Shown: positions 17,997 to 53,554, counted from the stretch's first letter. The stretch: 64,000 bases of DNA from Candidatus Poribacteria bacterium (GCA_965197475.1 CBDANF010000003.1:1824001-1888000); one strand, 5' to 3'. The notes: generated by a model not told the origin, from the letters alone. Made by a program: numbers and translations.

Positions 17997-18626
17997 ATGA
18001 AAATGAAATTGACATGGCGAATTGTAGCCACTTTCCTGGCAATTACCACCGCGCTACTGTTCTCAATCCTTTCGACCAAGGCAGAGGACGCGCACAAAAA
18101 TGACGAAGCCCATGACCACGGCAATGACAAAGTCACTGACGAAAAAGTGCGTTGCGCAATTGATGGCATGATGATGAAGGCTTTGTCAATGGTTAAAGTT
18201 GAACACGATGGAAAAGCCTACTATTTCTGCAACAGTATGCAGGTGAAAATGTTCAAGGCGAATCCAGAGAAGTACCTCCAAACAATCTCATTGGGACATT
18301 TGATATTCGATCTCAATCTGTTAACTATAGATGAGTACAGAGAGATGATGACTCACATGAAGATGGAGGGCATGATAAAAGCCGATGAAATTAAGGGAAA
18401 AACGCACTATTTCAGTATATACCCGATGCAAAACCACGAGGAGATTGCGTTAGGTGATGTTAAACTTGTCCTTCAGGTTACCAATGCCGAAGGGAAAACA
18501 AAGATGGCATTACTGAAATATAGCAAAATGACGCGGACCTACGAAGGGTTCATTGATATGCCCAAGGGTGAAAAACACGAAGTTCGCATTCGTGTGACAA
18601 GTCCAGCTGTCAAGATTTCACTTTAA
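17997..18626 (+). CDS. YHS-domain exported metal-binding protein
   Basis: CAIDGMMM..HDGKAYYFC....F..NPEKY; His/Met-rich; signal peptide. Confidence 0.85.
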   Translation: MKMKLTWRIVATFLAITTALLFSILSTKAEDAHKNDEAHDHGNDKVTDEKVRCAIDGMMMKALSMVKVEHDGKAYYFCNSMQVKMFKANPEKYLQTISLGHLIFDLNLLTIDEYREMMTHMKMEGMIKADEIKGKTHYFSIYPMQNHEEIALGDVKLVLQVTNAEGKTKMALLKYSKMTRTYEGFIDMPKGEKHEVRIRVTSPAVKISL

Positions 18627-18704
18627 TTTCACCATGTTTAGTAGGAGCATGTTCTGAGCACAATCCCTTCAGTGAGATAAAACTCTGGGCACTGCTCCTC
18701 AAAT

Positions 18705-18820
18705 TAGGGCATTCAGTTTTCAGTGTCTGCATATTGTAGCTGCAATTTTCTGATCGACGCTCCCGAGTCGGAACGAGCGCGGAAATAGCAACTCATGCGG
18801 AACTGAAACTGGATTGCCCA
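18705..18820. mobile_element. MITE-like element related to 28713-28833
   Basis: gggcattcagttttca ... tgaaactggattgccc imperfect TIR; no target duplication seen. Confidence 0.45.
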
Positions 18821-18839
18821 TCCGGTCAAGGAGAGGACA

Positions 18840-20198: not shown

Positions 20199-21876
20199 AG
20201 GTAAACTACGATATCTGTTTACCCGTGTGGTTCTGCTTTTCAAGCGCACTCGGCGTAACTTCACTTCAAGCACACTATGTCGCTGTCGTTTTCGCTATCG
20301 GAAGTACCCTATCACCTTACTCACCTGCCTCTTAATGCTCACTGTTTTGGTTGGTGGGTGTGCGAGCCATCGACTGGAGACATACCAAGAATTGCGTAGT
20401 GCTGAGGTACAACCACCAGCGTATTACTATACGGAAGTAGAAAAAAAACTTGCCAGTACTAAAAGCGAACCGATTGTAGAATCAGACCCGTTTCTCAGCG
20501 AGATTGAAGCAAAGGTGTTGAAATACCAAAAACAGTGGCAAGCTCAATTAGAAAGTGAAGCACCGATACCAAATCTGTTTTACGATCTTTCAACAGACAC
20601 TATGAAAGCCTATCGGCAATTGGCAGCGTCACCTGAAGAAGCGAAAACCCGACTTACTCAACCTGTTGTGTTGGAACTCCTTGTAGCATTTGGGTACGAA
20701 TGGAACCCGGGTTTGAAATCTGCCCGTGAAAAAATTCGGGCGGTACTGGAGCAGTATCCCCAAGCTGTTTACTTAGAGAATGTGTTACGTCAGTATAACG
20801 CTTTCACAAAACAACTTGATACGAAAGTTGGACCGTTGAGCCATAAAGAGATGATGGCAATGAAATTTCCGTTCCCAGGGACCTTAGCCTTGAAAGGGCA
20901 GATTATCACTGAAGATGTGCTAATTGCCCAAAAAGAGTTTGAGATCGCACTACGAGATCTAGTGACTGAGATCAAGTTAGCCTACTACGATTATCTTTTT
21001 GTCATTGAAGCAACCCATATTAACGAAGAAAATCAAGAATTACTGAAACAGATGATTGCTATTGCCCAGGCGAAGTTTCGCGTTGGGCAAGGCAAATATT
21101 CAAACATTATCATGGCACAGGTGGAGTTATCGAAATTGGCAAATTCGATTATTACGCTTGAACAACAACGAGAAACCATCATTGCGCGTCTCAATACATT
21201 GTTGAATTTTTCAGCGGATATGCCATTGGGTGCTCCAATACCTATTGAGGATGTCTACGTAACCGCTACCCTAGCTGACCTGTATAAGCTGGCTGTTGAA
21301 CACCGACATGAAATCCAAAAACAGAAGTTGGCAATCAGTAAGATGGGCTTGGCGGTGGAGATGGCAAAGCAAATGACATATCCTGATCCGACCCTCGGTG
21401 CAAGTTACTTTGAAAACCGGAGCATGGCGGACTTGAAACATACGAAAAAAATGCCGATGACATTTTCCACACGACGGACATTGAATCCGGCAAATACTGC
21501 GTGGTTCGGACACCGAAATTCGTACATCCACGAAATGGATGTAAAGATTGAAGCGATTGAGCATCAAATTGAAGAGCTTGAGAGCAATCTCCGCTTTGTT
21601 GTGAAAAAACATCATTTTGGGATGGAAACCGCAAATCGGAGTATTCGCCTTTATCGTCAGACGCTGCTTCCACAAGCACAACAGGCGTTGGATGCCTCGA
21701 ATTCAGCCTATCAGGCAGCGCAAATCGATTTTTTGAGTTTTCTTGATGCACAACGCACTTTATTAAAATTGAAGATTGAGGAACAGCGAGCATTGCGCGA
21801 TTATCGCCAACATCTCGCACAGTTGGAACAGGTAGTTGGCGTGATTTTGCCCAAACAACCACTGACCCAGAAGTAG
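20176..21876 (+). CDS. TolC/CusC-family outer-membrane efflux lipoprotein 2
   Basis: LVGGC lipobox, FPFPG.L.LKG, IDFLSFLDAQR; start uncertain. Confidence 0.88.
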   Translation: MIHILCSKGKLRYLFTRVVLLFKRTRRNFTSSTLCRCRFRYRKYPITLLTCLLMLTVLVGGCASHRLETYQELRSAEVQPPAYYYTEVEKKLASTKSEPIVESDPFLSEIEAKVLKYQKQWQAQLESEAPIPNLFYDLSTDTMKAYRQLAASPEEAKTRLTQPVVLELLVAFGYEWNPGLKSAREKIRAVLEQYPQAVYLENVLRQYNAFTKQLDTKVGPLSHKEMMAMKFPFPGTLALKGQIITEDVLIAQKEFEIALRDLVTEIKLAYYDYLFVIEATHINEENQELLKQMIAIAQAKFRVGQGKYSNIIMAQVELSKLANSIITLEQQRETIIARLNTLLNFSADMPLGAPIPIEDVYVTATLADLYKLAVEHRHEIQKQKLAISKMGLAVEMAKQMTYPDPTLGASYFENRSMADLKHTKKMPMTFSTRRTLNPANTAWFGHRNSYIHEMDVKIEAIEHQIEELESNLRFVVKKHHFGMETANRSIRLYRQTLLPQAQQALDASNSAYQAAQIDFLSFLDAQRTLLKLKIEEQRALRDYRQHLAQLEQVVGVILPKQPLTQK

Positions 21877-21982
21877 CGTTTTCTTGCATAGGATTTTAGA
21901 GTTCGCTAATTGCGAATTCCTTCTGGGAGGCGCGTATTTAAGCTATAAAACTGTAACGCAAACAATACAAGGAGTTTACAAA

Positions 21983-23893
21983 ATGCTTAGAAATTTCTGC
22001 CTCGCAACCACACTAATAATCACCGTGCTTTTCACATTTGGCTGTAGTCAGCAAGAGAACGCTGATGAAATGAAGCATCATGTTAGCAAAAGGCTCGACA
22101 CAAAATCTGAGAATACCACAGGCGTGGATGAACACACTGGCCATGCGGAAATGGCGATGTCTACTGACGAGAAAAAAAACATTCGTTTCTGGACTTGTGT
22201 TATGCACCCCACAGTCAAAATGCAAGAGTCCGGAAGTTGTCCAGTCTGTAAAATGGATCTCATTCCCATTTACGAGGGTTCAGGACTGGAACTAACTGAG
22301 CAACAGAAGGCACTGATTCCAGTGCGCACTGAGCCTGTCGCTTTTCGCAAAGTTGCACGTGAAATCCGAACTGTCGGTGTTCTTGATTACAATGAAACCC
22401 GAATGGCTTATGCGTCAACCCGTATCTCCGGGTGGATTGAGGACTTGCACGTTGATTTCACCGGTATCAAGGTGCGCGAGGGCGATGAACTCTTATCTAT
22501 CTATAGCCCAGAGTTAGTCGTCGCGCAAGAGGAATATCTAACAGCACTCAAAAGTGTGGGAGAACTTCAAAATACAGAATATGTGGACCTCCTCCGATCG
22601 ATTAAACTAAATCTCACCGCTGCTGAATCCAAACTGAAATTGTACGGATTAACCGGAAACCAAATAGAGGATATCCGCAACCGCGGCGAAGTCAGCACCG
22701 TTTTGCCACTCTATGCACCTATCGCGGGGACTGTTGTTCACATGAACGTCATGCAGGGGCAACACCTCAACAAAGGGACGAATCTTTACCGCATCGCAGA
22801 CCTCAGCAGCTTGTGGATCATGGCGGACGTTTACGAATATGAACTGCCGTGGATTTACATGGGGCAAGTTGTCGAAATTACGGCACAATCGATGCCGGGA
22901 AAAACGTTCTCCGGCAAAGTTACCTACATTTATCCGTTCTTTGATGCTAATACCCGCACCCAGAAAGTGCAGGTGGCTGTCGCGAATCCGAACGAGGAAC
23001 TCCGTCCAGGAATGTATGTGACACTCCGCATGAAACCTACGCTCGCAGAAATCTATACCCGGGGCGGTATGTCCGAGGATCCCTATGCATGTCCAATGCA
23101 TCCATGGATTACGTCCGAACACGCTAGCGAATGTGATATATGTGGTATGGATTTAGAGCCAACACATTCCGATGTCATGGCATCCGAGCCGATGTCTGGA
23201 ACAGAGGGAAAGTGGTCATGTCCGATGCATCCGGAAGCGCAATCTGATGAATTCGGCGAATGCTCTATCTGTGGTATGGATCTTGTTGAAAAAGCAAAAG
23301 CACCTTCAGAGACAACATCCGTGTGGACATGTCCGATGCATCCGGAGGTTCAGTCTGATGAATTCGGTGAATGCTCTATCTGTGGTATGGATCTCGTTGA
23401 AAAACAACCAGCAGCAGTTAGTGGAGTGCAAGCACATGCATCTCATACACATACCGCGCCTGTCATCCAGACGAATCTGCCGGCTCTCGTTTTCAAATAC
23501 GTGTGTCCTGATCATCCTGATGAATATGCGACCGTGCCAGGGCTATGTCCACGTGATGGAAAACCGCTCGCTATGACAGGAGAAGTTCTAACTATTCCGA
23601 AGAGTGCAGTCATTGACACCGGTTTACGGAAAGTCGTTTTCGTGGATCGCGGTGAATCCGGGTATGAGCAGGTTGAAGTTGAAGTCGGACCGGAAGCTTG
23701 GGGTACAGATGACAATTCAAAGATGAACCGCCGCTACTATCCGATCGTTAGCGGGCTGACCCCCGGTGATACCGTTGTCACCCATGGCAACTTCTTGATA
23801 GATTCGCAGACGCAGTTAACAGGCTCCGCATCAGGTGCTTATGGAGGGGCACTCGGCGGTGAAGAATCAAAAGCCCCTGTCCATCAGCATTAA
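21983..23893 (+). CDS. cusB: CusB/SilB-type RND periplasmic adaptor with five C-x-M/D-H-P heavy-metal-binding domains
   Basis: Lipobox TFGC, GWIEDL.VDFTG, IYSPEL..AQEEY, LRPGMY, FLIDSQ; five CxxHP...CxxC/D modules. Confidence 0.9.
   Translation: MLRNFCLATTLIITVLFTFGCSQQENADEMKHHVSKRLDTKSENTTGVDEHTGHAEMAMSTDEKKNIRFWTCVMHPTVKMQESGSCPVCKMDLIPIYEGSGLELTEQQKALIPVRTEPVAFRKVAREIRTVGVLDYNETRMAYASTRISGWIEDLHVDFTGIKVREGDELLSIYSPELVVAQEEYLTALKSVGELQNTEYVDLLRSIKLNLTAAESKLKLYGLTGNQIEDIRNRGEVSTVLPLYAPIAGTVVHMNVMQGQHLNKGTNLYRIADLSSLWIMADVYEYELPWIYMGQVVEITAQSMPGKTFSGKVTYIYPFFDANTRTQKVQVAVANPNEELRPGMYVTLRMKPTLAEIYTRGGMSEDPYACPMHPWITSEHASECDICGMDLEPTHSDVMASEPMSGTEGKWSCPMHPEAQSDEFGECSICGMDLVEKAKAPSETTSVWTCPMHPEVQSDEFGECSICGMDLVEKQPAAVSGVQAHASHTHTAPVIQTNLPALVFKYVCPDHPDEYATVPGLCPRDGKPLAMTGEVLTIPKSAVIDTGLRKVVFVDRGESGYEQVEVEVGPEAWGTDDNSKMNRRYYPIVSGLTPGDTVVTHGNFLIDSQTQLTGSASGAYGGALGGEESKAPVHQH
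23213..23404 (+). repeat. Near-identical ~81-nt duplication (111-nt period) encoding two metal-binding modules
   Basis: WSCPMHPEAQSDEFGECSICGMDLVEK versus WTCPMHPEVQSDEFGECSICGMDLVEK. Confidence 0.85.
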
Positions 23894-23993
23894 TCTGAGG
23901 ATTTCTTTAGCTGGGATCTGAAATTGTGAGTGCAAACTACTCTTACGGAAAGATTGCGCTAACAAAATACATCTACAAAAAGCGAGAAAGAAC

Positions 23994-26900
23994 ATGATTA
24001 ACCGAATTATTGAAATCTGTATGAAGAACCGCCTGTTGGTGTTAGTTATCTTTGTATTCGTCACAATGGCGGGTTGGTGGGCATTGAACCGTACACCAAT
24101 TGATGCGCTACCTGACATCGGCGAAAACCAGGTTATTGTCTTCGCGGATTGGCCCGGACGAAGTCCTCGGGATATTGAAGATCAGGTTATCTATCCGTTG
24201 AGTATCACTATGCTTGGGATTCCCGATGTCAAAGATGTTCGCTCAACCGCAATGTTTAGCTTTGGCTATATTAACATTATCTTCAAAGATGATGTTGATT
24301 TCTATTGGGCCCGCACACGAGTACTGGAACGGATGAATCTTGCGCAAAAAGATATGCCAGCGGGTGTTGTACCGATCCTCGGTCCCGATGCAACCGGTGT
24401 CGGGCAAGTATTCTGGTATACCGTTGAAAATGGGTACTATTGCCCTAACCATCCGACAGAACGCTATGCGGTGCCTGGTAAATGTCCGGAAGATGGAGAA
24501 ACACTGATTGCCTCTAATTTAGAGCTTCATGAACTTCGGACGCTTCAAGACTGGACGGTTCGTTACTATCTTGCCTCTGCTGATGGTATCTCCGAGGTTG
24601 CCTCAGTCGGTGGATATGTTAAACAGTATCAGATTGACATCGATCCGAATACTTTATTAGCCTATAATGTGCCATTGTCCGCTGTTTACAACGCTATCCG
24701 TGGGAGTAACCTTGATGTTGGTGCCAAGGTTATTGAGGAAGGCGGAATGGAATTCCTGATTCGGGGTTTAGGTTTTATCAAAAGCATTGAGGACATAGAA
24801 AATATTGTTGTCAAAGCACATAACGGTGTGCCTATCTACGTCAAGAACCTTGGAACAGTCAGCGAAGGTCCCGACTTCCGGCGCGGTGCTTTAGACAAGG
24901 CTGGCATCCCCGCGACCGGTGGGGTCGTGCTAATGCGCTACGGTGATAATCCACTGCGCGTGATCGAGAACGTCAAGGCGAAAATAGCAGAACTTACACC
25001 TGGACTCCCGCCGGGGGTCCGAATTGTTTCGTTCTATGACCGAAGCCATCTCATTCACCGCGCAACGGATACACTGAAGGAAACACTAACGGAGGAAATC
25101 ATCGTCGCGGCGGTTATTATCCTGCTTTTCTTAGGACAAGTTTCAAGTAGTATGATAATAGCACTTGTCTTACCGATGGGTGTTCTGCTTGCGTTTGTGG
25201 GTATGCGGGTTATTGGTTTACCGTCGAACATCATGTCTATGGGTGGCATCGCCATCGCGATTGGCGTTATGGTGGATGCAGGTATTGTAATGACAGAAAA
25301 TATCACGCGCCATTTACAGGAACCCCACGCAGGTGAAAGTAAGCTGCAAGTCGTAACCCGTGCTGCTAAAGAGGTAGGTCCACCCATCTTCTTTGCAATG
25401 CTCATTGTTATCGTTGCTTTCATACCTGTCTTTTCGCTTACCGGCCAAGCAGGTAAACTCTTCAAACCGCTTGCCTATACAAAAACTTTTGCTATGCTTG
25501 GTGCAGCCCTCATAGCGATTAGTCTGGTGCCAGTTTTAGCGTCATTTCTACTCACGGACCCAACCCGTACACGGACAGGTGTAGTTTCCAAGCGAGTGGC
25601 ACAGTTCTTTGCGCTACTAAGTTGGCCCTTGAGAAAGTTAGCGGATGGGATTACGTGGATACTCAGAACTAGCTATCGTCCGATTATTCAGTTGGCTGTA
25701 AAGAATATCTGGACTAAACTCACCGTTGTTGCCCTGGCAGTGTTAGCTTTTGCCGTAAGCATACCGTTGACTCCTTTCTATAAAAATATTGGGCAAGAAT
25801 TCATGCCTCCACTTAACGAAGGGGCGTTGCTATTTATGCCGGTGCTGCTTCCAGGTGCTTCAATTACCCAAGCAAAAGATATAATGGCAAAGCAGGATTT
25901 GATTATGAATCAATTCCCAGAGGTTTCGCTTGTAGTAGGGAAACTAGGACGTGCAACAACAGCGACCGACCCCGCTCCAATTGGCATGTTTGAAACCATC
26001 GTCAATATAGTTGACCCTGCGGAGTGGCTCCGACGCGCTATTAAACGAGACTCAACAACGGAACTTGTGCAACATCTTGTCCAACGCTTAAGAAGCGAGG
26101 AACTTATAAGCGAGGAACATGCGAGCCATATTAACGCCGATTTTCTGGATGACATTGTTACAGCGACCGCAGAGCGATTTGATACTTTAGCGACAACATA
26201 TCACAATTCTTATTTATCAGTTGACGAGCGCGAGAAACTCTATCGTATCTGGTTATTACGGATCCTTTTGGAAGAACTTTTAGTTGAAAAGCGGGCTGAG
26301 GGAATGGGATTGGAACAAGTCAAAATTGGTGAATCTGAAACTGAGACGAAACTTCATCGGATCGCCGAGGAAATTGAACCTACTCTCAAGCATAAGACTT
26401 ACTTCCGGACCAAGAACCGCAACGAACTCATCACCGAACTAACGGAGGCTACCCGAATGCCTGGGGTTTCACCCATTATGACGCAGCCCATACGCAATCG
26501 CGTTGATATGCTTGCAACAGGCATACAAACTCCAATCGGAATTAAAGTGTTTGGTAAGGACCTCGCGAAGATTGAAGAGATTGCGGTACGGATTGAGCAG
26601 GAACTCCTTAAACTTGAAGGGGCACAGGGTCCTTATGCCGAGCGCATTGGAAATAAGCCGTACCTCGAATTTCATATTGACCGAGAGGAAGCCGCGCGCT
26701 ATGGTATCCAAATCCAAACGGTACAACAAATCATCATGACGGCAATCGGTGGCATGAATTTGACCTATACCGTTGAAGGGCGGGAGCGATTTCCGATTCG
26801 TATCCGTTACATGAGAGAGTTGCGGGATAATGTTGAAGCACTCAAGCGAGTCTTCGTTCCAACACCAAAAGGACTCCATATTCCGCTTGAGCAACTCGTA

Positions 26901-27662
26901 AAAATCGAAAGGCGGCCGGGTCCCGCGAAGATCGCGAGCGAAAATACACTGCTCTTTTCCCGCGTCTTTTGTGATGTAGATGTTGACACCATTGGACTGG
27001 TCGACTTCGTCACATTAGCCCAAAAGACGCTTGATGAAAAGATTAAGCCAACTTTACCTCAAGGCTACTTCTACGCTTTTAGCGGACAGTACGAAGCTGA
27101 ACTGGAAGCTCGCGATCGATTAACAATTGTAGTACCCGTGTGTATTGTTGTCATTTTCATATTGCTATACCTTCAATTCAAGTCGCCTTCTGCGATGTTT
27201 TCGATCTTCCTTGCGATTCCTTTTGCATTCATCGGCGGCATGTGGATGCAGTGGTTAATGCAATACATACCGGAGGCACTCGGCGGCGGTTACGCCATTA
27301 AATACAGTACAGCAGTGTGGGTCGGGTATATAGCCTTATTCGGCATAGCCGTTGAAGATGGAATCGTTTTAATTGAATATCTACTGGAACGTGTCCGCGG
27401 CGGTGAACCTATTGACGAGGCGGTAGTCAATGCTGGTTTATTGCGCGTCCGACCTATCATCATGACCACGGCAACGACAGTGCTGGCGTTATTGCCAATC
27501 ATGTTAGCGGAAATCAGTACTACCACCGGCGCGGAATTGATGAAGCCCATCGCTGTACCTACCTTCGGTGGCATGGTCACGGCAACAGTGGCTAACCTGA
27601 TCTTGGCACCTGTATTATTCTCCCTCTTCTATCCGATTGAACGTTGGGTTCACCAACGGTAA
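23994..27662 (+). CDS. cusA: CusA/SilA-family Cu(I)/Ag(I) RND efflux permease
   Basis: DALPDIGENQVI, LGPDATGVG, IAIAIGVMVD; Met-triad-like FMP, PIGMFET and RVDML; RVRPIIMT. Confidence 0.93.
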   Translation: MINRIIEICMKNRLLVLVIFVFVTMAGWWALNRTPIDALPDIGENQVIVFADWPGRSPRDIEDQVIYPLSITMLGIPDVKDVRSTAMFSFGYINIIFKDDVDFYWARTRVLERMNLAQKDMPAGVVPILGPDATGVGQVFWYTVENGYYCPNHPTERYAVPGKCPEDGETLIASNLELHELRTLQDWTVRYYLASADGISEVASVGGYVKQYQIDIDPNTLLAYNVPLSAVYNAIRGSNLDVGAKVIEEGGMEFLIRGLGFIKSIEDIENIVVKAHNGVPIYVKNLGTVSEGPDFRRGALDKAGIPATGGVVLMRYGDNPLRVIENVKAKIAELTPGLPPGVRIVSFYDRSHLIHRATDTLKETLTEEIIVAAVIILLFLGQVSSSMIIALVLPMGVLLAFVGMRVIGLPSNIMSMGGIAIAIGVMVDAGIVMTENITRHLQEPHAGESKLQVVTRAAKEVGPPIFFAMLIVIVAFIPVFSLTGQAGKLFKPLAYTKTFAMLGAALIAISLVPVLASFLLTDPTRTRTGVVSKRVAQFFALLSWPLRKLADGITWILRTSYRPIIQLAVKNIWTKLTVVALAVLAFAVSIPLTPFYKNIGQEFMPPLNEGALLFMPVLLPGASITQAKDIMAKQDLIMNQFPEVSLVVGKLGRATTATDPAPIGMFETIVNIVDPAEWLRRAIKRDSTTELVQHLVQRLRSEELISEEHASHINADFLDDIVTATAERFDTLATTYHNSYLSVDEREKLYRIWLLRILLEELLVEKRAEGMGLEQVKIGESETETKLHRIAEEIEPTLKHKTYFRTKNRNELITELTEATRMPGVSPIMTQPIRNRVDMLATGIQTPIGIKVFGKDLAKIEEIAVRIEQELLKLEGAQGPYAERIGNKPYLEFHIDREEAARYGIQIQTVQQIIMTAIGGMNLTYTVEGRERFPIRIRYMRELRDNVEALKRVFVPTPKGLHIPLEQLVKIERRPGPAKIASENTLLFSRVFCDVDVDTIGLVDFVTLAQKTLDEKIKPTLPQGYFYAFSGQYEAELEARDRLTIVVPVCIVVIFILLYLQFKSPSAMFSIFLAIPFAFIGGMWMQWLMQYIPEALGGGYAIKYSTAVWVGYIALFGIAVEDGIVLIEYLLERVRGGEPIDEAVVNAGLLRVRPIIMTTATTVLALLPIMLAEISTTTGAELMKPIAVPTFGGMVTATVANLILAPVLFSLFYPIERWVHQR

Positions 27663-32625: not shown

Positions 32626-33870
32626 TGTACTGCCACCGGAAATTCGGGCCGCTCTCTAAGACAAGATTATGGTATAATATCCATCTCCTTGAAAGGAGTA
32701 TCCGATGGCGAAACGAAAACGAAGAAACTTCACCCCCGAGTTTAAAGCCGAAGTTGTTCTTGAGGCTCTCAGCGTTGAAAGTTCCCAAGCAGAAGTGTGT
32801 CGGCGACATAACCTCATCGATGAACAACTTTCAAAGTGGAAGCGACAGCTTCTTGAAAAAGCGGCGACCCTCTTTGAACCCGCTGATAAACAGTCTGATG
32901 CCTCTGCGGAGCGGATCGCCCAACTTGAGCAACTCGTTGGGCGGTTGACCTTGGCACTTGACATCCAAAAAAAAGCCTCAACTTACTTGAGTTAGCCTCG
33001 ATGGAGCAGCGAGAAATGGTTACGGCATTACGGACAGACTTTTCGGTTCGGCAGATATGTGAGACACTCGGTTTCAACCGAAGCAACCTCTATTATCACT
33101 CCAAGCAGGCCCCGTGTGAAGCGGGCCTCCAGGATGAAATAGAGACGTTATCTTTGCTATATCCAACATACGGATATAGGCGTCCCACACAGTTGTTGGT
33201 GCGTAGCGGATACACCATCGGGTATAAACGTGTTGCCCGATTGATGAAGTCCGCCAACCTCTCGGTTTCTGTCAAGCGTGTCTGTCAAACCACGACATCC
33301 GTTGCGGGTGTGCGTCCCTGGAGCAATCGCCTTGAAAACCTTGATGTCTCCCGATGTAATCAGGTCTGGGTGGGCGATATTACCTACGTCCGCCTCAAAG
33401 GACACTTTATCTATGTTTGTCTGCTCATGGATGTCTTCACTCGCATGATCAGAGGGTGGCATATCAGTCAACACTTGACGCAATCTCTGACGTTGAAACC
33501 CTTGGAGACAGCATTATGTCAAAGTGTCCCAGAGATCCATCATTCTGATCAAGGCGTTCAATATCTTTCAAATGCGTCCATCTCACTGCTTAGGCATCAT
33601 GGGATTGAGATTTCAGTCGCCCGGAGAGGGTGTCCTTGGGAGAACGGATATGCTGAAAGACTTATCCGCACGCTCAAGGAAGAAGAAGTTCATCTCAATG
33701 ACTATGAGGACATCCACGAAGCAAGAACCCGCATTGGGCATTTTATTACACAAGTGTATAATCACAAACGCCCTCACTCTGCGTTAGGGTATTTGACACC
33801 TGTGGAATTTGAGCAAAAAAACTTGTCTTAACTTTGCTAAATTTTGGTCTGAATAAACGGTAGCACTTCA
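32626..33870 (+). mobile_element. IS3-family insertion sequence, copy 1 (1245 bp)
   Basis: TG...CA ends (tgtactgccaccg / cggtagcacttca), orfA and orfB. Confidence 0.95.
32705..33831 (+). CDS. IS3 transposase OrfAB (orfA 32705-32995, orfB to 33831) via -1 frameshift
   Basis: HTH RRNFTPEFKAEVV; WVGDITY, HHSDQG and ENGYAER DDE motifs; A8G slippery run at 32967-32975. Confidence 0.93.
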
Positions 33871-42654: not shown

Positions 42655-43899
42655 TGAAGTGCTACCGTTTATTCAGACCAAAATTTAGCAAAGTTAAGAC
42701 AAGTTTTTTTGCTCAAATTCCACAGGTGTCAAATACCCTAACGCAGAGTGAGGGCGTTTGTGATTATACACTTGTGTAATAAAATGCCCAATGCGGGTTC
42801 TTGCTTCGTGGATGTCCTCATAGTCATTGAGATGAACTTCTTCTTCCTTGAGCGTGCGGATAAGTCTTTCAGCATATCCGTTCTCCCAAGGACACCCTCT
42901 CCGGGCGACTGAAATCTCAATCCCATGATGCCTAAGCAGTGAGATGGACGCATTTGAAAGATATTGAACGCCTTGATCAGAATGATGGATCTCTGGGACA
43001 CTTTGACATAATGCTGTCTCCAAGGGTTTCAACGTCAGAGATTGCGTCAAGTGTTGACTGATATGCCACCCTCTGATCATGCGAGTGAAGACATCCATGA
43101 GCAGACAAACATAGATAAAGTGTCCTTTGAGGCGGACGTAGGTAATATCGCCCACCCAGACCTGATTACATCGGGAGACATCAAGGTTTTCAAGGCGATT
43201 GCTCCAGGGACGCACACCCGCAACGGATGTCGTGGTTTGACAGACACGCTTGACAGAAACCGAGAGGTTGGCGGACTTCATCAATCGGGCAACACGTTTA
43301 TACCCGATGGTGTATCCGCTACGCACCAACAACTGTGTGGGACGCCTATATCCGTATGTTGGATATAGCAAAGATAACGTCTCTATTTCATCCTGGAGGC
43401 CCGCTTCACACGGGGCCTGCTTGGAGTGATAATAGAGGTTGCTTCGGTTGAAACCGAGTGTCTCACATATCTGCCGAACCGAAAAGTCTGTCCGTAATGC
43501 CGTAACCATTTCTCGCTGCTCCATCGAGGCTAACTCAAGTAAGTTGAGGCTTTTTTTTGGATGTCAAGTGCCAAGGTCAACCGCCCAACGAGTTGCTCAA
43601 GTTGGGCGATCCGCTCCGCAGAGGCATCAGACTGTTTATCAGCGGGTTCAAAGAGGGTCGCCGCTTTTTCAAGAAGCTGTCGCTTCCACTTTGAAAGTTG
43701 TTCATCGATGAGGTTATGTCGCCGACACACTTCTGCTTGGGAACTTTCAACGCTGAGAGCCTCAAGAACAACTTCGGCTTTAAACTCGGGGGTGAAGTTT
43801 CTTCGTTTTCGTTTCGCCATCGGATACTCCTTTCAAGGAGATGGATATTATACCATAATCTTGTCTTAGAGAGCGGCCCGAATTTCCGGTGGCAGTACA
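42655..43899 (-). mobile_element. IS3-family insertion sequence, copy 2 (inverted, apparently identical)
   Basis: Same 1245-bp length and ends; identical OrfA (43530-43820) and OrfB (42694-43524) translations. Confidence 0.95.
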
Positions 43900-44389: not shown

Positions 44390-44886
44390 TTAATACCTAA
44401 TATAGTTTTTACTATCCTTATCGTCCATAATTTGATCAAACAGTCCTAACTGCTTTGGACCTTGCTGGTTTTCCACGTATTCTTTCAGGACATCCAATGT
44501 CACGCCACCCGTAGATGATACAAATTTAGAAGGTGTCCACAAAGACCGAATACGCCTCAACCATCTAAACTCTCTCCGTAATGTGCGAGATGAATATCCT
44601 TTAATCTTTCCGATAATCTCTGTAACATTGAAATGCGGAGCAATTGACACTAACAGATGTATATGATCTGACATGGTCTCAATTGCGATGACTTCATAAT
44701 TATAATCCTCCTGTTTTTCTTCAATAATCTCTTTCAACCGATCTTGGATTTTAGGCGACAGCCACTTCTTACGATACTTAGTACACCAGATGATGGATAA
44801 TCACAGGCATGTACCGTATGATTGGCACGCTTGTATTCGTTCTTTGTTCGATTAGATTTTGTTTGATATGCATTTCTGTCACTCAT
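44390..44886 (-). pseudogene. tnpA: IS200/IS605 Y1 transposase with a 1-nt frameshift near 44795
   Basis: HTVHACDY/IIWCTKYRK, DHIHLL (HUH), KG.SSR, LWTPSKFVSS.G, EYVENQ. Confidence 0.85.
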
Positions 44887-45438
44887 AATTTCCTTCCCTT
44901 TAAAATCAGAAGTGTGAGAACGGTGAACGTCCCCACACACGATAAACCCTTGCCACAGTTGACACGGTTTCAGTTTTATTGTAATATACGGAGTGCAAGT
45001 AAGTCGAAAAACAATAAACCACTTACCCGCACCCCTATGCAGGAAATCATAGACGATGAAAAGGGTCGTCTCATTCCTGCAATTCGGTAACGAAGTAATA
45101 GCAGGATTCAAGATGGCAATCAATGTGCCTGTTTACTCCTTACAAGTTCTAAATCGATCGTTTGACACACCACCGTGTGCCACCCGTCGACACGTTGACC
45201 TAATGTCAACACACGAACACACGTTTGTCAAATCTATTTTCAATCTATTTTGGCTCGATGGAGGCAATGTCAGAAAGAGTTTATCTGTGGTAACTAATGC
45301 TGATAACTAATGTTTGATTTTTTGTTTTTCTTGATTTTTTCAACAAAAACGGTATACTAGCACTGGTTTATATTGGAATTTTTACCTCAATAAAAATATT
45401 GTATCAATGCAATATTCCACTCGTTATAAAAATACTGT

Positions 45439-46424
45439 GGCTCATGTAAAAAGTAAGTGCTATTTTTTCAAAGTTATGTTAGAGTGTTACCTATGGACTT
45501 TCCAATACAATCTCTCCTGGATGAAGAAAAAACTCAAGCGTGGGTGTTGGATCATTTCCACCTTCAAGGGCTGTGTTGCCCAAAATGCCAAGCGAGCGTG
45601 GCGGAGGCACGCAAGTTCCGTCCGACTGAAACAAGTGGTCTACAAGTGTATCGCTGCAAACACTGTGAGAGCATCTACAACCTCTATACCGGGACGGTCT
45701 TTGCTGGCACGCAGTTTCGTCCCTCACAGGTCGTTCTGCTTTTGCGCGGTGTCTGTCAAGGTGTTTCAAGTGCACAACTCGGGTGTGAACTGGGTCTAAG
45801 TCGTCAAACCGTTCTTTCTATAAGACGTAAACTCCAAACTTCGGCAGAGCAGATACAACCCGAAGCTGCTTTACCTGATGCTGAAGTCGAAACAGATGAG
45901 ATGTTTCAAAACGCCGGTGAAAAAGGCGATAAGCACGTTGATGCTTCGGATCCGCCGCGTCGGCGTGGCAATAAACGCAGGGGACATGGGACTTATGACA
46001 ATGATCGTCCGCCTATTGTTGGGACGAAAGGTCGCGAAAGCGGTCTCCTGAGATTACGTGTTGTGCGGCACACCGATTCTGCGACGCTTTCAACACACGT
46101 TCATCAGTGGACGTTGCCGACTTCAACGGTGTATACGGATGGTTGGCGTGGCTATAACCGTATTCAGCGCGCCCGTGAGATTGTTCTCCATAAGGATGGC
46201 GAGTGGGCAAGAGACGCAGACGGTGATGGTCTTTACGAGATCCATACAAGGACGATTGAAGGTGCCTGGACGACGCTGCGAAACTTCCTTCGTCCCTTTC
46301 GTGGCGTTCATAAAAAGTTCCTCGCCGGTTACGTCGCAATCTGTGAGTTCGTCATGAATCTAAAAGCTGTCAGTGTTGATTTTATAGCAAAACTTGTCAA
46401 AAGCACTTACTCTTGACATGAGCG
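45439..46424 (+). mobile_element. IS1595-family element 1 (transposase about 45493-46416)
   Basis: TIR ggctcatgtaaaaagtaagtgct / agcacttactcttgacatgagcg; Zn ribbon, ETDE, VYTDG, IEG.W, RGV motifs. Confidence 0.9.
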
Positions 46425-46433
46425 AAGGGAAGT

Positions 46434-47418
46434 GGCTCATGTAAAAAGTAAGTGCTTTTTTCTTTCTTTCTGCTATAGTATAGCATATGGATTTTCCAAT
46501 ACTTTCTTTAATTGATGACGAACGCGCGGCGGAATGGTTGCTAAACCATTTCCATCCCCAGGGTTTACACTGTCCACATTGCGATGTGAGCGTGGCGGAG
46601 GCACGCTATTTTAGAACAACAAAAACAAGTCGCATAAAGGTTTACCGCTGTAAAGTATGTAAGGGTGTATATAACCTCTATAGTGGGACAGTGTTTGCTC
46701 AAAAACAGTATCGTCCTTCACAGGTAGTTCTGCTTTTGCAAGGTGTTTGCAAAGGTTTTTCTTCCGCTCAATTGGCACGCGAACTCAATATCAGTCGTCA
46801 AGCGGTGCTTTCCATACGGCGTGTGCTTCAGGCATCTGCCGAGATGATGCAACCTGAGGTAGCTTTGCCGGACACTGCAACAGAAACAGATGAGATGTTT
46901 CAAAACGCAGGTGAAAAAGGAGAACCGCATAAAGACCTGAAGGATCCACCGCGTCGGCGTGGTAATAAACGCAGAGGTCATGGCACTTATGCGAATGATC
47001 GTCCACCTATAGTCGGCACGATCGGGCGCAAAAGTAAGCGTGTCCGATTGCGTGTGGCACATCATACCGATAGTGCTACACTCTCATCACACGTGCATCA
47101 GTTCACGCTCCCCACTGCTACTGTATATACAGATGGATGGCGAGGCTATAATCGTATTGATCGTTCTCATGCGAGCGTGTGTCATGGTGATGGCGAATGG
47201 GCGAGGGATGACGATGCGGATGGTATTTTTGAAACCCATATCAACACGATTGAAGGTGTGTGGACAACGGTTCGTAACTTTCTCCGCCCATTTCGCGGTG
47301 TTCATAAAAAGTTCCTTTCGGGATATATCGCTATCTGTGAATTTGTTATTAATCTCAAATCTATTACTACTGAGTTTATATCACGACTCGTCCAACGCAC
47401 TCACTCATAACATGAGCC
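46434..47418 (+). mobile_element. IS1595-family element 2 (transposase 46487-47410), diverged paralog
   Basis: TIR ggctcatgtaaaaagtaagtgc / gcactcactcataacatgagcc; same catalytic motifs. Confidence 0.9.
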
Positions 47419-47464: not shown

Positions 47465-49582
47465 TTACCTTTCATTTGAAACAACCGGCACATCTTCTTT
47501 TTCAAGGATCGCATGCTTCACAGCTGGGAAAAACGGACTGTTAGAACTTATTGCCATCCATCTTTTCGAAAAGAATTCCATAGCAATGTGAACATTGGAA
47601 TCATTGGTAGACATATCACCTGATTCCTGTGATGGTATCCAATTTTCATAAGTAACTGGATCACCGTTGATCCATTGCAATGATGTGTTCTTTTGTGATG
47701 TTTTCAACCCAATCCAATAGAACAAGTTTTCAGCAAAACGTGCCTCTAACCATCTCTGTTCTGCTTCACTGTTAACACTAACAAGATATGCATCTTCTGC
47801 AGCAGCTTTAGTCTTTGCGTCATTCCAACTGTCGCACTGAATCTTTTTGTAAGCATGTCCATTTTCGGGGTTTACTGTCCACACCGCTTGTTGTTTTTTC
47901 ACCCGCTCATTCTGTTTTTTGCGATGTTTCTCCACATCTTTAAGTCTTAAGACCAGTTTATCGTAATGCTGTCCCTCTTTTAAACGAAACCATCTGGATT
48001 TTGCTGATGCGCCCTCATATCTCACCAACACCGAGTATTCTGCTGCCTCATCCAGTTGATTATACACGAAATAGCCTTGGGAATCAGTTTCAGCACCCCC
48101 GCTTGATGTTGATCTGCTTGAACCACTGGTAAAGAAAAGGAGGAAAGTATCTCGTATGCGTTGCCGAACGGTGAGTCGAATCCCCGCATTGGCAAGGGGT
48201 GTTCCATCCTTTAAAAGAACCCGTCCCCGAATTCGCATCGGCGCAGGTTTCACTGTGACGACTATGTTTTCAAGTGGCATACCCGGTTCAATAGCAAATG
48301 TGGGTTTGCCAAACCAGTTAGGTAAATTTCTATGAGATCCTTTGAAATAAAAAGTCATATCGCCGATTTCAAGGGTAACAATTTCAAAATCGGATCCCCC
48401 TTCAGGCAACATCACCAATTGTGATGGAACGGAATCAATGTTGGCAAAAGAAAAACCTCCTTGTTTATCAGTTTCGACTCGTTTCCAAGAAGATATAGGT
48501 GTGCAAGGGACCACATCATTATTTCGATTAAATTCTACCGGTTTAATTGTGAGTTCAAGCCCAGGAACAGCGTTTCCGTCTGTGTCTACAACCTTACCGG
48601 AAAGGGATGTAGTGCCTTTCTCTGTAATATTATCAGATTTTGAATCCTTTCTCGTATCTGTCTCTGCTGAGTTGACTAATTGTGCATCCGGTTTCTGTGC
48701 AGCATTGTTGTTTCTAATCGGAACATCCGAGTGTCCCGCCCGATTTCGCAACACGGGTTTCTCTGGAGAATCTACAATCTGTTGTGCATCTGTTATCTCA
48801 ACCGTCGGTTCGGATGTCGCGTCAAAACTATACGGTTTCTGAAAACGGTATAGATATTGCGCCCCCACACCCAGCAGTAAAAAAACTAAAATGGCAGAGG
48901 CACTCGAAACTAACCACGGAACCAGAGGTTTATTCCCAGACGGTGCTGCAGGTTTAAGATGTGATATTTCCTTCATAATATTCTCTGTTAATTGTATTGG
49001 CAATTGGAACCCACTAAGTATTTCTTGAATCATTGCTTCTTCCTTCCTTAATCGGTTGCGTGCGCGGTGAAGCCGACTCTTAACTGTGTTCGTTGATACG
49101 CCGAGAAATCTGCCAATCTCTTCACAACTCAAACTAGCAAGATAGTGAAGTGTAACCACTGTCCGATCGCTCTCTCGCAACTTGCTGAGCAGTTTATGAA
49201 CCACCGCGTAACGCTTTTCTTTTGTCACTTCCTCGCGCTGCCAAGACACGTATTCCGAGTAATATGCTTCCTCCAACTCAACAGGATCTGTTCCCTCTAA
49301 AGATTCTGGTTGGGGCTTTTTCTTTCGGTACCACGTGATACACTTGCGATTTGCGATGACATAGAGCCATCCCGCAAAGCAGTTGCGATTTTTGAGGGTC
49401 CCAAGTTTTTGATACGCAGTGATGAATACATCCTGAGTAATCTCTTGTGCAATGTGAAAATCACTGATCTTCTGCCATGCCAACGCGTGTATCTGATCTT
49501 GGTATTTTTCCACAAGTGCTGCGAAAGCATGCTGATCGCCTTCAAGGACGCGTTCAATCAACTCAGCATCACCGTGTTTCAT
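47465..49582 (-). CDS. ECF sigma-70 factor fused to a TM segment, carboxypeptidase-regulatory-like domains and a C-type lectin domain
   Basis: AQEITQDVF, F.GWLY.IA and TVKSRLHRAR sigma motifs; TM; SGKVVDTDG.AV; NPENGHAY..YLV.VNS.AEQ.W..WIGL..YENW. Confidence 0.85.
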   Translation of the reverse strand: MKHGDAELIERVLEGDQHAFAALVEKYQDQIHALAWQKISDFHIAQEITQDVFITAYQKLGTLKNRNCFAGWLYVIANRKCITWYRKKKPQPESLEGTDPVELEEAYYSEYVSWQREEVTKEKRYAVVHKLLSKLRESDRTVVTLHYLASLSCEEIGRFLGVSTNTVKSRLHRARNRLRKEEAMIQEILSGFQLPIQLTENIMKEISHLKPAAPSGNKPLVPWLVSSASAILVFLLLGVGAQYLYRFQKPYSFDATSEPTVEITDAQQIVDSPEKPVLRNRAGHSDVPIRNNNAAQKPDAQLVNSAETDTRKDSKSDNITEKGTTSLSGKVVDTDGNAVPGLELTIKPVEFNRNNDVVPCTPISSWKRVETDKQGGFSFANIDSVPSQLVMLPEGGSDFEIVTLEIGDMTFYFKGSHRNLPNWFGKPTFAIEPGMPLENIVVTVKPAPMRIRGRVLLKDGTPLANAGIRLTVRQRIRDTFLLFFTSGSSRSTSSGGAETDSQGYFVYNQLDEAAEYSVLVRYEGASAKSRWFRLKEGQHYDKLVLRLKDVEKHRKKQNERVKKQQAVWTVNPENGHAYKKIQCDSWNDAKTKAAAEDAYLVSVNSEAEQRWLEARFAENLFYWIGLKTSQKNTSLQWINGDPVTYENWIPSQESGDMSTNDSNVHIAMEFFSKRWMAISSNSPFFPAVKHAILEKEDVPVVSNER

Positions 49583-49927
49583 GGGACACCTCACAAACAG
49601 AATAATCTTTTAATTTATAGACGCGATTTTGAATTGGAAGGTTGCACTTTTGGAAATAAAACCAATATTTAAGGAAGAAGGTTCACCAAAATGATAACAT
49701 AAAGACGATCAACTGCCAATTTAAAATGACTATACTTTGGACATTTTTTAGTGTTTTATCTGAAAGCTTGGTTTATTCAACCTCTTAGACATTAAGACAA
49801 GCTCATCCTTATTATACCAATTCTATAAATTATTTTCTCTTTTGAAAAAATGTAAGAGGCGCAATGAATTGCGCGACTACGAACTGTCTATTTTTTTAAG
49901 AGAAGTTATTTTTGAGAAATGGTATTA

Positions 49928-51078: not shown

Positions 51079-52281
51079 TCAATTAGGGTTAGAGACAAGA
51101 CCTATCCCCGACGCAATCGCTTTATCCCAATCAGCAGTAAACACCCACCAATTTGTCATATCCGTATTCTTATATTGAATCCCATTCTTATGTCCAGGCA
51201 TATTTTGCATCCAATAGATATACCACTGTGACTCTATTCGTTGCGGAATTTTTTTGGGATCAGAGTCTGGCCATGCATACTTCAATTTTCCATAAGTATT
51301 GACGTTAACTAATTTCTTTGCTCCACTATTATCTGGTGTCCAATCTTCAATATCGCTTTCGACGAGTGTCATCGTTTCAGTATAGTCATAGTGTTTTACC
51401 GTATTTGGTGGCATGTGTGTCCAACCTGCGCGCCCGGTAATGAAGTTCCCATTTTCGTCTTGCCCAACAAATTTTTTCCAAAAGAGATCAGTATTGCCAT
51501 ATTGTAAATGATTGACGTGGCTCAATATTGCTTCTAATTGATGCCCGTGATTGTGTACCGCTTCTGCGTGGCTTCGTCTGAAGTTTTGCCCATAGACGGT
51601 ATAAGTAGAATTGTAGATAGGCAGATCCGTGTTATCTCGGTTGCTGTTGGAGATATCCCCCGTCAGTGGACTTGACATATTCGATTCCCACCAATTTCTA
51701 AAATCTTCAGGTTTATGGATAGCAGGGTCATAACATGGAAAATCAGAATTCACAGCACCCATCCATATCCATATCTCTTTGACACCTAAATCGTTGACAT
51801 AATGTTTCATGTTGAAGCGTTCAAAAATTTTATGATAATCAGGAGCGTAGAGAGGGGTACCATCCTTTAAATGGTCACAGACCGGTCCTTGCGGTGTTTG
51901 TTCATAAACGGTAATGTATTCTACCACACGATAATCGATTGATGGGACAGCAGCAGGATTTTTATAACCTCTGAACCGTGTTCCTTCTTCAAGCATGAAC
52001 TTTACCCGTTTATCAAAAAGATCAATTTTTGTCTTGAGCTCCGCTAAGGTAATTTCACCTAAATCCCAAAAATCGGGTGCTTTTGACACATCCACATTTA
52101 TACCGTCTGTTGTCGGTATAAATCTCATTATGACCACTGGGATTTCATTGATATGCCCTGGGGCGGGGGTAGCTAAATAAGGGTCAATTTTTTCAAATAC
52201 TGGAGGAATTTCCTCTGCAAATCCGTGCGTTGAATTCATTAGCATCATGATGAGCGCGCATCCTAATAAAATAGTCTTCAT
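51079..52281 (-). CDS. Secreted hypothetical protein, possible metallohydrolase
   Basis: Signal peptide; AEAVHNHGHQLE and GWTHMPPN His motifs. Confidence 0.7.
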   Translation of the reverse strand: MKTILLGCALIMMLMNSTHGFAEEIPPVFEKIDPYLATPAPGHINEIPVVIMRFIPTTDGINVDVSKAPDFWDLGEITLAELKTKIDLFDKRVKFMLEEGTRFRGYKNPAAVPSIDYRVVEYITVYEQTPQGPVCDHLKDGTPLYAPDYHKIFERFNMKHYVNDLGVKEIWIWMGAVNSDFPCYDPAIHKPEDFRNWWESNMSSPLTGDISNSNRDNTDLPIYNSTYTVYGQNFRRSHAEAVHNHGHQLEAILSHVNHLQYGNTDLFWKKFVGQDENGNFITGRAGWTHMPPNTVKHYDYTETMTLVESDIEDWTPDNSGAKKLVNVNTYGKLKYAWPDSDPKKIPQRIESQWYIYWMQNMPGHKNGIQYKNTDMTNWWVFTADWDKAIASGIGLVSNPN

Positions 52282-52419
52282 TTTGTGTATTGAAACGATA
52301 TCGTATAAAAAGAATCCTCATGTGCCTTGTAGCGCATGAGGATTAAAATAATATCAAATATGGTTAAATAAAAGTTTTCACAAACAGAAATGTGAAAGTA
52401 ATTCCAAATCCTAATCAAT

Positions 52420-52785
52420 TTATTCATCAAGTAGTTGTGCTGTAAAACGAGGCTTTTCACCAACTTCTTCAATTGCTTCAACTGCATCAATTAAAGTTGT
52501 CGTTTTAACTTTGTCTTTCTCAACTTTCAAAACGACCTTTTCGTCTGCTTGTGAAACACTGACGACCTCGGTAACACCTGCAACCTTACTAAGTGCATCC
52601 TGCACTTTACTGGTACAAGCACCTCAGACCATACCTGTTACGGTTAAGCTGATTTCTTCGATTGGAACATTTACCTCAGATTGTTGCGTCTCTTCCGATG
52701 GTTTCTCTGTAGTATCTTTTTGCTGGTTAGCACATCCAAAAACGACTACCAGCGCAAATAGGCAGATAAGTGCTTTTTTTAACAT
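52420..52785 (-). CDS. HMA (CopZ/MerP-like) lipoprotein, putative selenoprotein (GMV-U-GAC)
   Basis: AAGGA RBS and ATG at 52785; lipobox VFGC; in-frame TGA at 52624-52626 in the first-Cys position of GMxCxxC; HMA fold continues to TAA at 52420. Confidence 0.85.
52591..52607 (-). promoter_or_regulatory. Putative bacterial SECIS hairpin
   Basis: AAGUGCA-GGA-UGCACUU; loop starts after 23 nt downstream of UGA. Confidence 0.75.
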
Positions 52786-52917
52786 TTCAATAGATTCCTT
52801 CTTAAATATCTGATTTGGCACAAATAGTTAATAAAAATTTTTAAGTCTTATAACGGATATATTTATTGTTGTCCGAATTGTGTTACATACTGGACAATTA
52901 GCACAATATGACAGATG

Positions 52918-52939
52918 AAGGGCGAGAGACCTCGCCCTT
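52918..52939 (-). terminator. Hairpin between the two HMA genes
   Basis: aagggcgag-agac-ctcgccctt. Confidence 0.5.
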
Positions 52940-52951
52940 GCAAGTCAGTCG

Positions 52952-53335
52952 TTAGTTTACGACAGAAGCCGTAAAGCGAGGATCTGCTTCAACAGCTTTA
53001 ATCAGAGCATCGTTTGTAACTTTGCCCTTTTCAACTTTAACGACAGCCTTCTTGGTGGATCTGTCAACACTGATAACCTCGGTGACACCCGTGACCTGAC
53101 TGAGTGCAGACTGCACTGCAGGGGGACACGCGCCTCATGTCATGCCCTCCACCAGAAGTGTCACTTCCTGAAAGGCAGCTTTTTGCGGAGTTGGAACCGT
53201 TGTTTCGTCCATCGGTTTTTCATCCGTAGCCATTGTGGTTTCTTCTGGCATTTCTGCCTGCTTACCGACCATACCACAACCCATCAGGAATGCAAAGGTA
53301 ACGAGGGAAATCAGCATTAATCTCGCGATATACAT
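52952..53335 (-). CDS. HMA (CopZ/MerP-like) lipoprotein paralog, putative selenoprotein (GMT-U-GAC)
   Basis: AAGGAGG RBS; lipobox LMGC; in-frame TGA at 53135-53137; continues GACPPAVQSALSQVTGV...ALIKAVE to TAA at 52952. Confidence 0.85.
53100..53121 (-). promoter_or_regulatory. Putative bacterial SECIS hairpin
   Basis: CUG-c-AGUGCA-GUC-UGCACU-CAG; loop starts after 23 nt downstream of UGA. Confidence 0.75.
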
Positions 53336-53554
53336 CGTTTTACCTCCTTCGTAAAATTACATCACCATTTTAACATATTTTAAATTATCATGTCAAGTCC
53401 TTTTTACTATGAACCCGATTTCTAACATCTTACAAGACAAGATGATGTCTACTGTACTGAAATTTAAGGTTGTTATACTTCTATGTATTTAATCTTGATC
53501 GGGGTTTGGGATGATATAAGGATCAGAATCATAGGTTTGGAGAATTATTGACTT

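Follow-up and report, generated by a model that had tools for sequence, protein, structure and literature searches.

In-frame TGA codons at the metal site of a tandem pair of HMA lipoprotein genes from Candidatus Poribacteria: probable selenocysteine and a candidate soft-metal binder

Are two neighbouring genes that both appear to stop in the middle of their own metal-binding motif broken, or is the stop codon read as an amino acid? The question is raised by genes A and B, which occupy positions 52,420–53,335 of a 64,000-nt stretch of DNA (the window) from Candidatus Poribacteria bacterium (GCA_965197475.1 CBDANF010000003.1:1824001-1888000). In each gene, an in-frame TGA stands where a heavy-metal-associated (HMA) domain has its first metal-ligand cysteine. 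We conclude from comparative evidence that these TGA codons are almost certainly decoded as selenocysteine (Sec, U) and that A and B are very probably real selenoproteins. Our preferred reading, to which we give a probability of about 0.6, is that both are extracytoplasmic lipoproteins, recoded by SelB with the guidance of an RNA hairpin, whose Se/S pair would bind soft metals, most likely Cu(I), as a sink or a chaperone.

Layout of the gene pair and the predicted proteins

The elements of the pair are as follows.

52420–52785, minus strand: gene A, HMA lipoprotein (GMV-U54-GAC), 121 aa, stop TAA, lipobox VFGC followed by a linker
52952–53335, minus strand: gene B, HMA lipoprotein (GMT-U67-GAC), 127 aa, stop TAA, lipobox LMGC followed by a disordered linker
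52624–52626, minus strand: putative Sec codon TGA of gene A, in frame by read-through translation
53135–53137, minus strand: putative Sec codon TGA of gene B, in frame by read-through translation
52592–52606, minus strand: hairpin of gene A resembling a selenocysteine insertion sequence (SECIS), AGUGCA-GGA-UGCACU, from alignment and motif scan
53103–53117, minus strand: SECIS-like hairpin of gene B, AGUGCA-GUC-UGCACU, beginning 17 nt past the TGA, from alignment and motif scan
53367–53396, minus strand: promoter-like site 5' of gene B (TTGACA, 18 nt, TG-TAAAAT), 11 of 12 consensus positions matched
52306–52344, minus strand: terminator-like hairpin and U run between gene A and the next gene (fold of 52282–52419, z = −4.29)

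Under translation table 11, both reading frames split at the TGA, into pieces of 65 + 61 and 66 + 54 aa. The TGA takes the place of the first Cys codon of the HMA motif GMxCxxC (TVTGMV-U-GAC in A and VEGMT-U-GAC in B), and when it is read as U, each frame continues as one protein to a TAA. The start of gene A was taken as the ATG common to its orthologues (MLKKALIC or MLNKALIC). By inspection, gene B has a ribosome-binding site AAGGAGG 6 nt 5' of its ATG, and gene A has a weaker GAAGGAA-like site approximately 11 nt 5' of its ATG. The promoter-like site lies about 30 nt upstream of gene B; it is a consensus match only, and the region holds four such sites against 4.5 expected from shuffles. 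The terminator-like hairpin after gene A was seen by folding, and a simple scan did not flag the same site.

Both proteins begin with a hydrophobic leader with a lipobox-like end, followed by a low-complexity acidic linker. A relaxed lipobox pattern matches all 54 distinct orthologues, and the lipobox Cys is invariant in their alignment (column C20). A and B are thus predicted to be exported lipoproteins by virtue of a lipobox signal peptide. The two paralogs are 45% identical to each other. The sequence-only reading had described two tandem genes of 121 and 127 aa, each in frame to a TAA and each with a ribosome-binding site and a lipobox, and this description stands.

The HMA domain predicted in both proteins is recognized by Pfam (PF00403) with 29.7 bits for A and 36.4 bits for B, above the gathering threshold of 24.8. 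In an AlphaFold2 model of B, built from a 16-sequence alignment, residues 3–18 form the signal helix, the chain is poorly predicted up to approximately residue 50 (predicted local distance difference test, pLDDT, below 50 for residues 21–37), and residues 55–127 adopt a beta-alpha-beta-beta-alpha-beta arrangement with pLDDT above 95. U67 is situated in the beta1-alpha1 loop of the model, and C70 is at the start of the helix. The top Foldseek match is the oxidised form of MerP (1osd), with 44% identity, a target-normalised TM-score (TMt) of 0.90 and a root-mean-square deviation of 1.7 Å. Searching the PDB by sequence again puts MerP (E = 4.5e-9) first among the solved single-domain structures. 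Foldseek gives 55 PDB matches at E ≤ 0.001, and those listed are either HMA domains or proteins that contain one.

Decoding of the in-frame TGA

The genome that holds the window (5.70 Mb, 92.7% complete) encodes the machinery for Sec insertion. We found selA (534 bits), selB (349.8 bits, cut-off 242), a tRNA-SeC(tca) gene approximately 230 nt from selB, and selD (370 bits), whose own in-frame TGA (contig C3:3099237–3100163) points to a Sec-containing SelD.

A six-frame search covered 41 genomes, namely the genome of the window, 24 others of the same genus and 16 from three other families of the order. Every one of them gives a match. In 40 of the 41 genomes the top match contains a single TGA; the remaining genome (G027) has Cys. 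The TGA is kept in relatives down to approximately 35% identity. In a phylum-wide draw with this query, a match at E ≤ 1e-8 is present in 111 of the 121 genomes (81/81 in family f1, 9/9 in f2, 19/19 in f3, 1/3 in f4 and 0/8 in f5–f8), and all but five rows have one TGA among the matches listed. Forty loci gave 61 motif hits, corresponding to 53 distinct stretches of 66 nt, and the codon at the Sec site is TGA in 50 of these and TGT or TGC in three, an agreement that excludes chance. Cys forms are represented by paralog A of G024, both genes of G027 and homologs from anammox bacteria. Four loci of family f4 (L049–L052) were missed by the motif pattern; on inspection they read GMTU-xxx-C, one residue longer, with the TGA kept.

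The frame beyond the TGA is under purifying selection: over the 48 codons that follow it, the median ratio of nonsynonymous to synonymous substitution rates is 0.33 for B-type genes (171 pairs) and 0.25 for A-type genes (135 pairs). TGA also serves as an ordinary stop codon, ending 7 of the 26 long open frames in the window and 7 of the 54 distinct orthologues of A and B, and a reassigned genetic code is therefore excluded.

Other sequence data carry the same codon. Runs X4 and X6, metatranscriptome libraries of a separate study (P2) that are labelled sponge metagenome, each contain a 314-nt contig that is identical to positions 52986–53299 and spans the TGA of gene B. A diverged contig in run X5 covers the site of gene B with all three TGA bases unchanged, and a related-strain contig in run X1 (record 2) spans the TGA of gene A, again with the three bases unchanged. 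Runs X1–X3 are possibly the window's own source. Related contigs that are abundant have loose ends in which ...GMT is followed by TGA. The RNA runs cover the stretch in part, and the uncovered parts carry no evidential weight.

These observations bear directly on the view that the TGAs are real stops, in which case the locus would consist of pseudogenes, of a short lipopeptide gene followed by an unrelated reading frame, of a sequencing error, or of a TGA read as Trp or Gly. Gene callers treat the genes in this way, and the orthologues retrieved from public protein collections end at ...EGMT or carry W at the Sec site. We consider it very improbable, given a TGA at the same codon across the breadth of the order, purifying selection beyond it, independent contigs with the same TGA, its ordinary use as a stop in the window and in the gene family itself, and a full Sec machinery in the genome. 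A and B are conserved genes, probably expressed, and very probably encode real selenoproteins.

The region just past the TGA contains a candidate recoding signal. All 50 TGA forms can form a 6-bp stem (A-GUGC-A/G pairing with U/C-GCAC-U) closed by a 3-nt loop, 17 nt past the TGA, and the first loop base is G in 50 of 50. RNAalifold independently predicts the same helix. Standard pairs make up 99.0% of the pair cells, against 2–57% when the partners are slid. Pair 26–30 is the only one that varies on both sides (AU 43, GC 4, GU 2, GA 1). The mean entropy at third codon positions is 0.16 bit in the helix and 1.53 bit outside it. The codons of the helix are fixed accordingly, with Val as GTG in 50/50 (share in the window 0.21), Ala as GCA in 50/50 (0.39) and Gln as CAG in 43/43 (0.38). 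Covariation is thin, and the case for the hairpin rests mainly on this freezing of synonymous sites. In the bSECISearch literature, a bacterial SECIS is a stem-loop shortly after the UGA with a G in the apical loop; the hairpin of A and B has this spacing and this G and is thus a putative SECIS.

The four f4 sequences keep the hairpin, displaced by the extra codon to 3 nt farther from the TGA, and add three G-C and one G-U to pair 26–30. Other observations agree with a SECIS function. The stem is interrupted by one or more mismatches in all three Cys forms, and no such hairpin is found in the Cys-containing HMA domain of CopA from the genome of the window. The 15-nt motif occurs five times in that genome against approximately 0.7 expected. 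Three of the sites are Sec-HMA genes, each with a TGA 20 nt before the motif; of the other two, one is the reverse reading of the gene B palindrome and one is unrelated. The likely SECIS of selD is a different hairpin, nearer its UGA. On the other side, an Rfam search of the region returned no matching family, its sole hit (E = 0.96) being irrelevant.

The sequence-only reading had placed Sec in the metal site and had judged a nonsense mutation or sequencing error unlikely. Both claims hold up well: selA, selB, selD and tRNA-Sec are all found, TGA forms stand beside Cys forms among the homologs, the relatives keep the TGA at the same codon, a hairpin follows it, and independent contigs read TGA, not TGT or TGC.

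Metal binding, redox chemistry and known relatives

MerP (TIGR02052; PDB 1osd, 1afi) resembles A and B: it consists of one exported HMA domain, and its loop is of the GMTCxxC type. It differs in having Cys where A and B have Sec, and in being soluble, whereas A and B would be lipid-anchored through a long disordered tether. Mercury has a very high affinity for selenium. A and B might be true MerP proteins, that is, mercury-specific periplasmic scavengers that feed mercury detoxification; this would fit that affinity, the position of MerP as nearest solved single-domain structure in both sequence and fold, and the C-P that follows the motif in gene B (GMTUGACP). Nevertheless, the MerP equivalog model TIGR02052 scores only 50.3 bits for B and 28.2 bits for A against a cut-off of 92.55. 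In searches of the genome, which is 92.7% complete, MerT is not found, and the two matches to the MerA model (388.7 and 337.4 bits) fall below the cut-off of 454. The pair also lies in a conserved core locus with housekeeping neighbours and no mer operon. We therefore regard a dedicated mercury role as quite unlikely.

Two curated NCBIfam families already describe Sec-containing HMA proteins. NF041115 (UxxU_metal_bind, 'metal-binding (seleno)protein') is an HMA-type selenoprotein family and the best or second-best NCBIfam match of A and B, at 40.7 and 50.0 bits against a cut-off of 95. Its members have two Sec residues (UxxU), whereas A and B have UxxC (UxxxC in f4) and a lipoprotein leader. 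Passages of two reviews refer to this family as a 'putative mercuric reductase' in an Olavius symbiont (PMC13188914, PMC9312934). NF045683, a MerT/CopZ fusion-like selenoprotein family predicted to act in heavy-metal transport, shares UxxC in the HMA site; in its members a membrane transporter is joined to the HMA domain, which is either cytoplasmic or membrane-bound, whereas A and B are stand-alone and exported. A and B reach 24.2 and 41 bits with this model against a cut-off of 375, and only over the C-terminal HMA part of the profile.

Among other carriers, CopZ and Atx1 are small soft-metal carriers like A and B, and CopZ shares the HMA fold, but it is cytoplasmic and has Cys only. In Cus systems, Cu(I) and Ag(I) are carried in the periplasm by CusF, which would be a functional analog of A and B with a different fold.

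In Table 2 of the Global Ocean Sampling (GOS) selenoproteome, which draws on marine metagenomes, one selenoprotein row is named 'Mercuric transport protein MerP' and has two sequences from one sample and no Cys homologs (PMC2398784). Like A and B, it is a predicted Sec-containing MerP-like protein; the row gives no motif, SECIS, organism or architecture by which to equate it with A and B. A preprint discusses other families in which Sec serves as a ligand for heavy metals (10.1101/2022.07.06.499078). Full-text literature searches returned neither an account of the A/B lipoproteins nor an experiment on any Sec-HMA protein, which is not proof that none exists. This agrees with the sequence-only reading, which had pointed to metagenomic predictions of Sec-containing MerP-like sequences and to no characterized case. 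Sec-containing HMA or MerP-like proteins have thus been predicted already, and the A/B lipoproteins are a new, unannotated addition to them.

Both genes are conserved and undamaged, and their HMA fold, their export signals and the full set of genomic marks of Sec decoding are established or strongly supported. We propose the following mechanism for A and B. The UGA would be recoded by SelB and tRNA-Sec, guided by the hairpin, which lies within the codons of helix alpha-1 (V-Q/R-x-A-L). The protein would be exported and anchored to lipid through the lipobox Cys, and an acidic disordered tether of 24–63 residues would carry the MerP-like HMA domain, in which Sec replaces the first metal-ligand Cys (GMxUxxC). 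The resulting Se/S pair may bind soft metal ions outside the cytoplasm, and A and B could then act as a surface or periplasmic sink or as a chaperone or carrier. Compared with CxxC, a selenolate might bind more tightly and faster and might be harder to inactivate by oxidation in an oxidising compartment. We favour Cu(I) as the ion, since a single Cu-type P1B ATPase (CopA, with a Cys-containing HMA domain) is present in the genome, whereas searches of it gave no MerT, no MerA above the cut-off and no CusF; Hg(II) and Ag(I) would also be possible. Such a role as a soft-metal Se/S chelator is plausible.

The main rival to metal binding is a redox role, in which A and B would be selenoproteins with UxxC as a periplasmic or surface redox centre (an oxidoreductase or a metal or metalloid reductase) and not a passive binder. 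A third Sec-HMA gene of the same genome, outside the window, is relevant here.

Contig C3, approximately 937.9–939.5 kb (locus L014, 1483–3087), minus strand: third Sec-HMA gene, 534 aa, predicted to be exported

Its product joins a haem-binding PSCyt1 (CxxCH) domain to a WD40 propeller and has at its C terminus an HMA domain with GMTUGAC, and the gene contains the same hairpin; it is widespread in Poribacteria, with the TGA kept in many. The fusion to a haem domain and WD40 suggests electron transfer to the site. Also, 33 of the 51 selenoprotein families in the GOS survey are homologs of thiol oxidoreductases or thioredoxin-like, many of them with UxxC or CxxU (PMC2398784), and the title of 1osd shows that solved MerP has an oxidised disulfide form. 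On the other hand, A and B have the fold and motif of a metal-binding HMA domain, with 44% identity to MerP and, among the PDB matches listed by sequence and by fold, hits to HMA only. They have no thioredoxin-like fold, and no conserved gene for a redox partner lies beside the pair. A redox centre is therefore unlikely in our view, if less so than a mercury scavenger.

Metal binding by hairpin-guided selenoproteins remains our preferred reading, and a number of points weigh against it. Only one of the six pairs in the stem covaries, a count reached by 229 of 500 shuffles, and four of six pairs are invariant. The frozen synonymous sites lie in a stretch that also encodes conserved residues. 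Folds of single sequences give z = −1.50 and −1.93, with 17 and 9 of 200 shuffles equally stable, neither of them significant, and the stem is short (6 bp) with a loop of 3 nt. As for the codon, a contig cannot show variants that are rare, and some DNA may be present in an RNA library. The Cys forms indicate that Sec is dispensable in some lineages, and the selenium in the A and B proteins is a prediction. With the genome 92.7% complete, the missing MerT and CusF are not proof of absence. The metal and the partner are guesses, with no conserved metal-gene neighbour in the families examined.

A wider reading can be put forward tentatively, and we doubt it more than we believe it. A and B would belong to an ancient, multi-phylum and so far unannotated family of extracytoplasmic Sec metallochaperones, in which one frozen SECIS doubles as the code for helix alpha-1 and the site is an oxidation-resistant trap for Cu(I) or Hg(II). 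In Poribacteria the family would be a core trait, made up of the tandem pair and the fusion of haem, WD40 and HMA(Sec), and it could play a part in how metals and selenium are handled within sponges.

Many predicted bacterial selenoproteins are redox enzymes, and there is little discussion of Sec acting as ligand to a metal in a chaperone-type domain that is exported. Natural Sec/Cys pairs are on offer in paralog A of G024, the G027 genes and the anammox homologs, and a cultured carrier may be available, with a homolog in a record titled Rohdeia mirabilis Pla163. The hairpin, at 15 nt, is compact and could be a portable recoding signal. Taken together, the benefit of selenium over sulfur at a soft-metal site becomes directly testable.

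Spread of the module and surroundings of the pair

We scanned one genome per GTDB species for G-x-x-TGA, a second Cys codon and the hairpin; since the hairpin is required, the scan gives no estimate of Sec-HMA genes that do not have it. At least 111 stretches match. Among the 80 titled matches listed, most are metagenome-assembled genomes of Candidatus Poribacteria, and several proteins are identical to those of relatives of the window, which places its genome in Poribacteria, a phylum of sponge symbionts. Other titled matches among those listed are from Acidobacteriota (Acidiferrales, Vicinamibacterales), Planctomycetota (Kuenenia, Singulisphaera, Rohdeia mirabilis Pla163), Akkermansiaceae, Latescibacterota, Acidimicrobiia and a Cytophagia metagenome-assembled genome. 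In translation, the matches are HMA proteins in which U occupies the equivalent position. Most of them are small with an N-terminal hydrophobic leader or lipobox, and the other recurring form is a protein of approximately 530 aa, like the product of the third Sec-HMA gene. The same TGA/hairpin module is also present in Acidobacteriota, Planctomycetota and Verrucomicrobiota, in HMA proteins that are predicted to be exported. The only name seen in databases is 'heavy-metal-associated domain-containing protein', on the anammox Cys homologs, and the counts of HMA proteins and selenoproteins may be understated in these three phyla and in Poribacteria.

Some Poribacteria (genomes G074, G063, G089 and G117, and protein P0005) have arrays of several HMA domains in which TGA- and Cys-containing domains are mixed. 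A match resembling pyridine-nucleotide-disulfide oxidoreductases (C2:1319378–1320052) contains one TGA and may be another selenoprotein.

The surroundings of the pair were compared by Pfam annotation of 54 neighbouring open reading frames at 11 loci. No conserved operon partner was found among them; the neighbours are not metal genes and differ by family, with pyrimidine genes in one, a thiamine-pyrophosphate enzyme and RlmL in another, a multihaem cytochrome and a TPR protein in a third, and a GFO/IDH oxidoreductase and a TPR protein in a fourth. The pair looks like a constitutive core locus. It stands alone, is conserved across the order and is not part of a resistance island.

Other features of the window are as follows.

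17997–27662, plus strand: Cus-like efflux cluster with a YHS protein (17997), two OEP proteins, CusB with four HMBD repeats and a 1222-aa resistance-nodulation-division (RND) pump; pump genes at 18840–27662
32626–33870 and 42655–43899: two inverted copies of an IS3-family insertion sequence, 1245 nt, 100% identical, bracketing 8784 nt
51079–52281, minus strand: gene X, 400 aa, secreted, assigned to no family by Pfam or NCBIfam

A link between the pair and the Cus-type pump, which the sequence-only reading had suggested as possible, was rejected. CusB has no orthologue in four of four complete genomes of the same genus, all of which keep the HMA pair. Its best hits in the four have 27–30% identity and are to a paralog that is also present in the genome of the window, which served as the positive control; an earlier CusB search of these genomes at E ≤ 1e-30, run with no control, gave no match. 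A block resembling a composite transposon and other mobile genes separate the pump from the pair. The Cus-like cluster is probably a strain-specific acquisition.

The segment between the two IS3 copies contains MazF-like, VWA-CoxE, alcohol dehydrogenase, prenyltransferase-like and DNA methylase-HNH genes and has the look of a composite transposon. An IS200 and two IS1595 transposase genes lie past the second copy, at 44390–47410.

Gene X is directly downstream of gene A in 14 of the 20 same-genus genomes that have it, the genome of the window included, and the terminator-like hairpin described above lies between the two genes. It is fused in frame to paralog A in G016, with its own signal peptide lost, lies at a different place in G017 and G022 and on a separate contig in G014, and is not found in five genomes of the genus. 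The protein, in which a stretch H..GHQ.E is invariant, comes from a widespread family of secreted domains and is 50–60% identical to proteins of many phyla that are fused to Big_2, LamG, type IX secretion system (T9SS) or dockerin modules. The AlphaFold2 model is confident, with a pLDDT of 87, and the fold matches are weak and mostly to metzincin peptidases (Foldseek E ≥ 4.5e-3, VIA Z ≤ 7.1). Whether gene X is a functional partner of the pair is undecided.

Positions 47465–49594 (minus strand) encode a 709-aa protein that combines an extracytoplasmic function (ECF) sigma factor (regions 2 and 4) with CarboxypepD_reg and C-type lectin domains.

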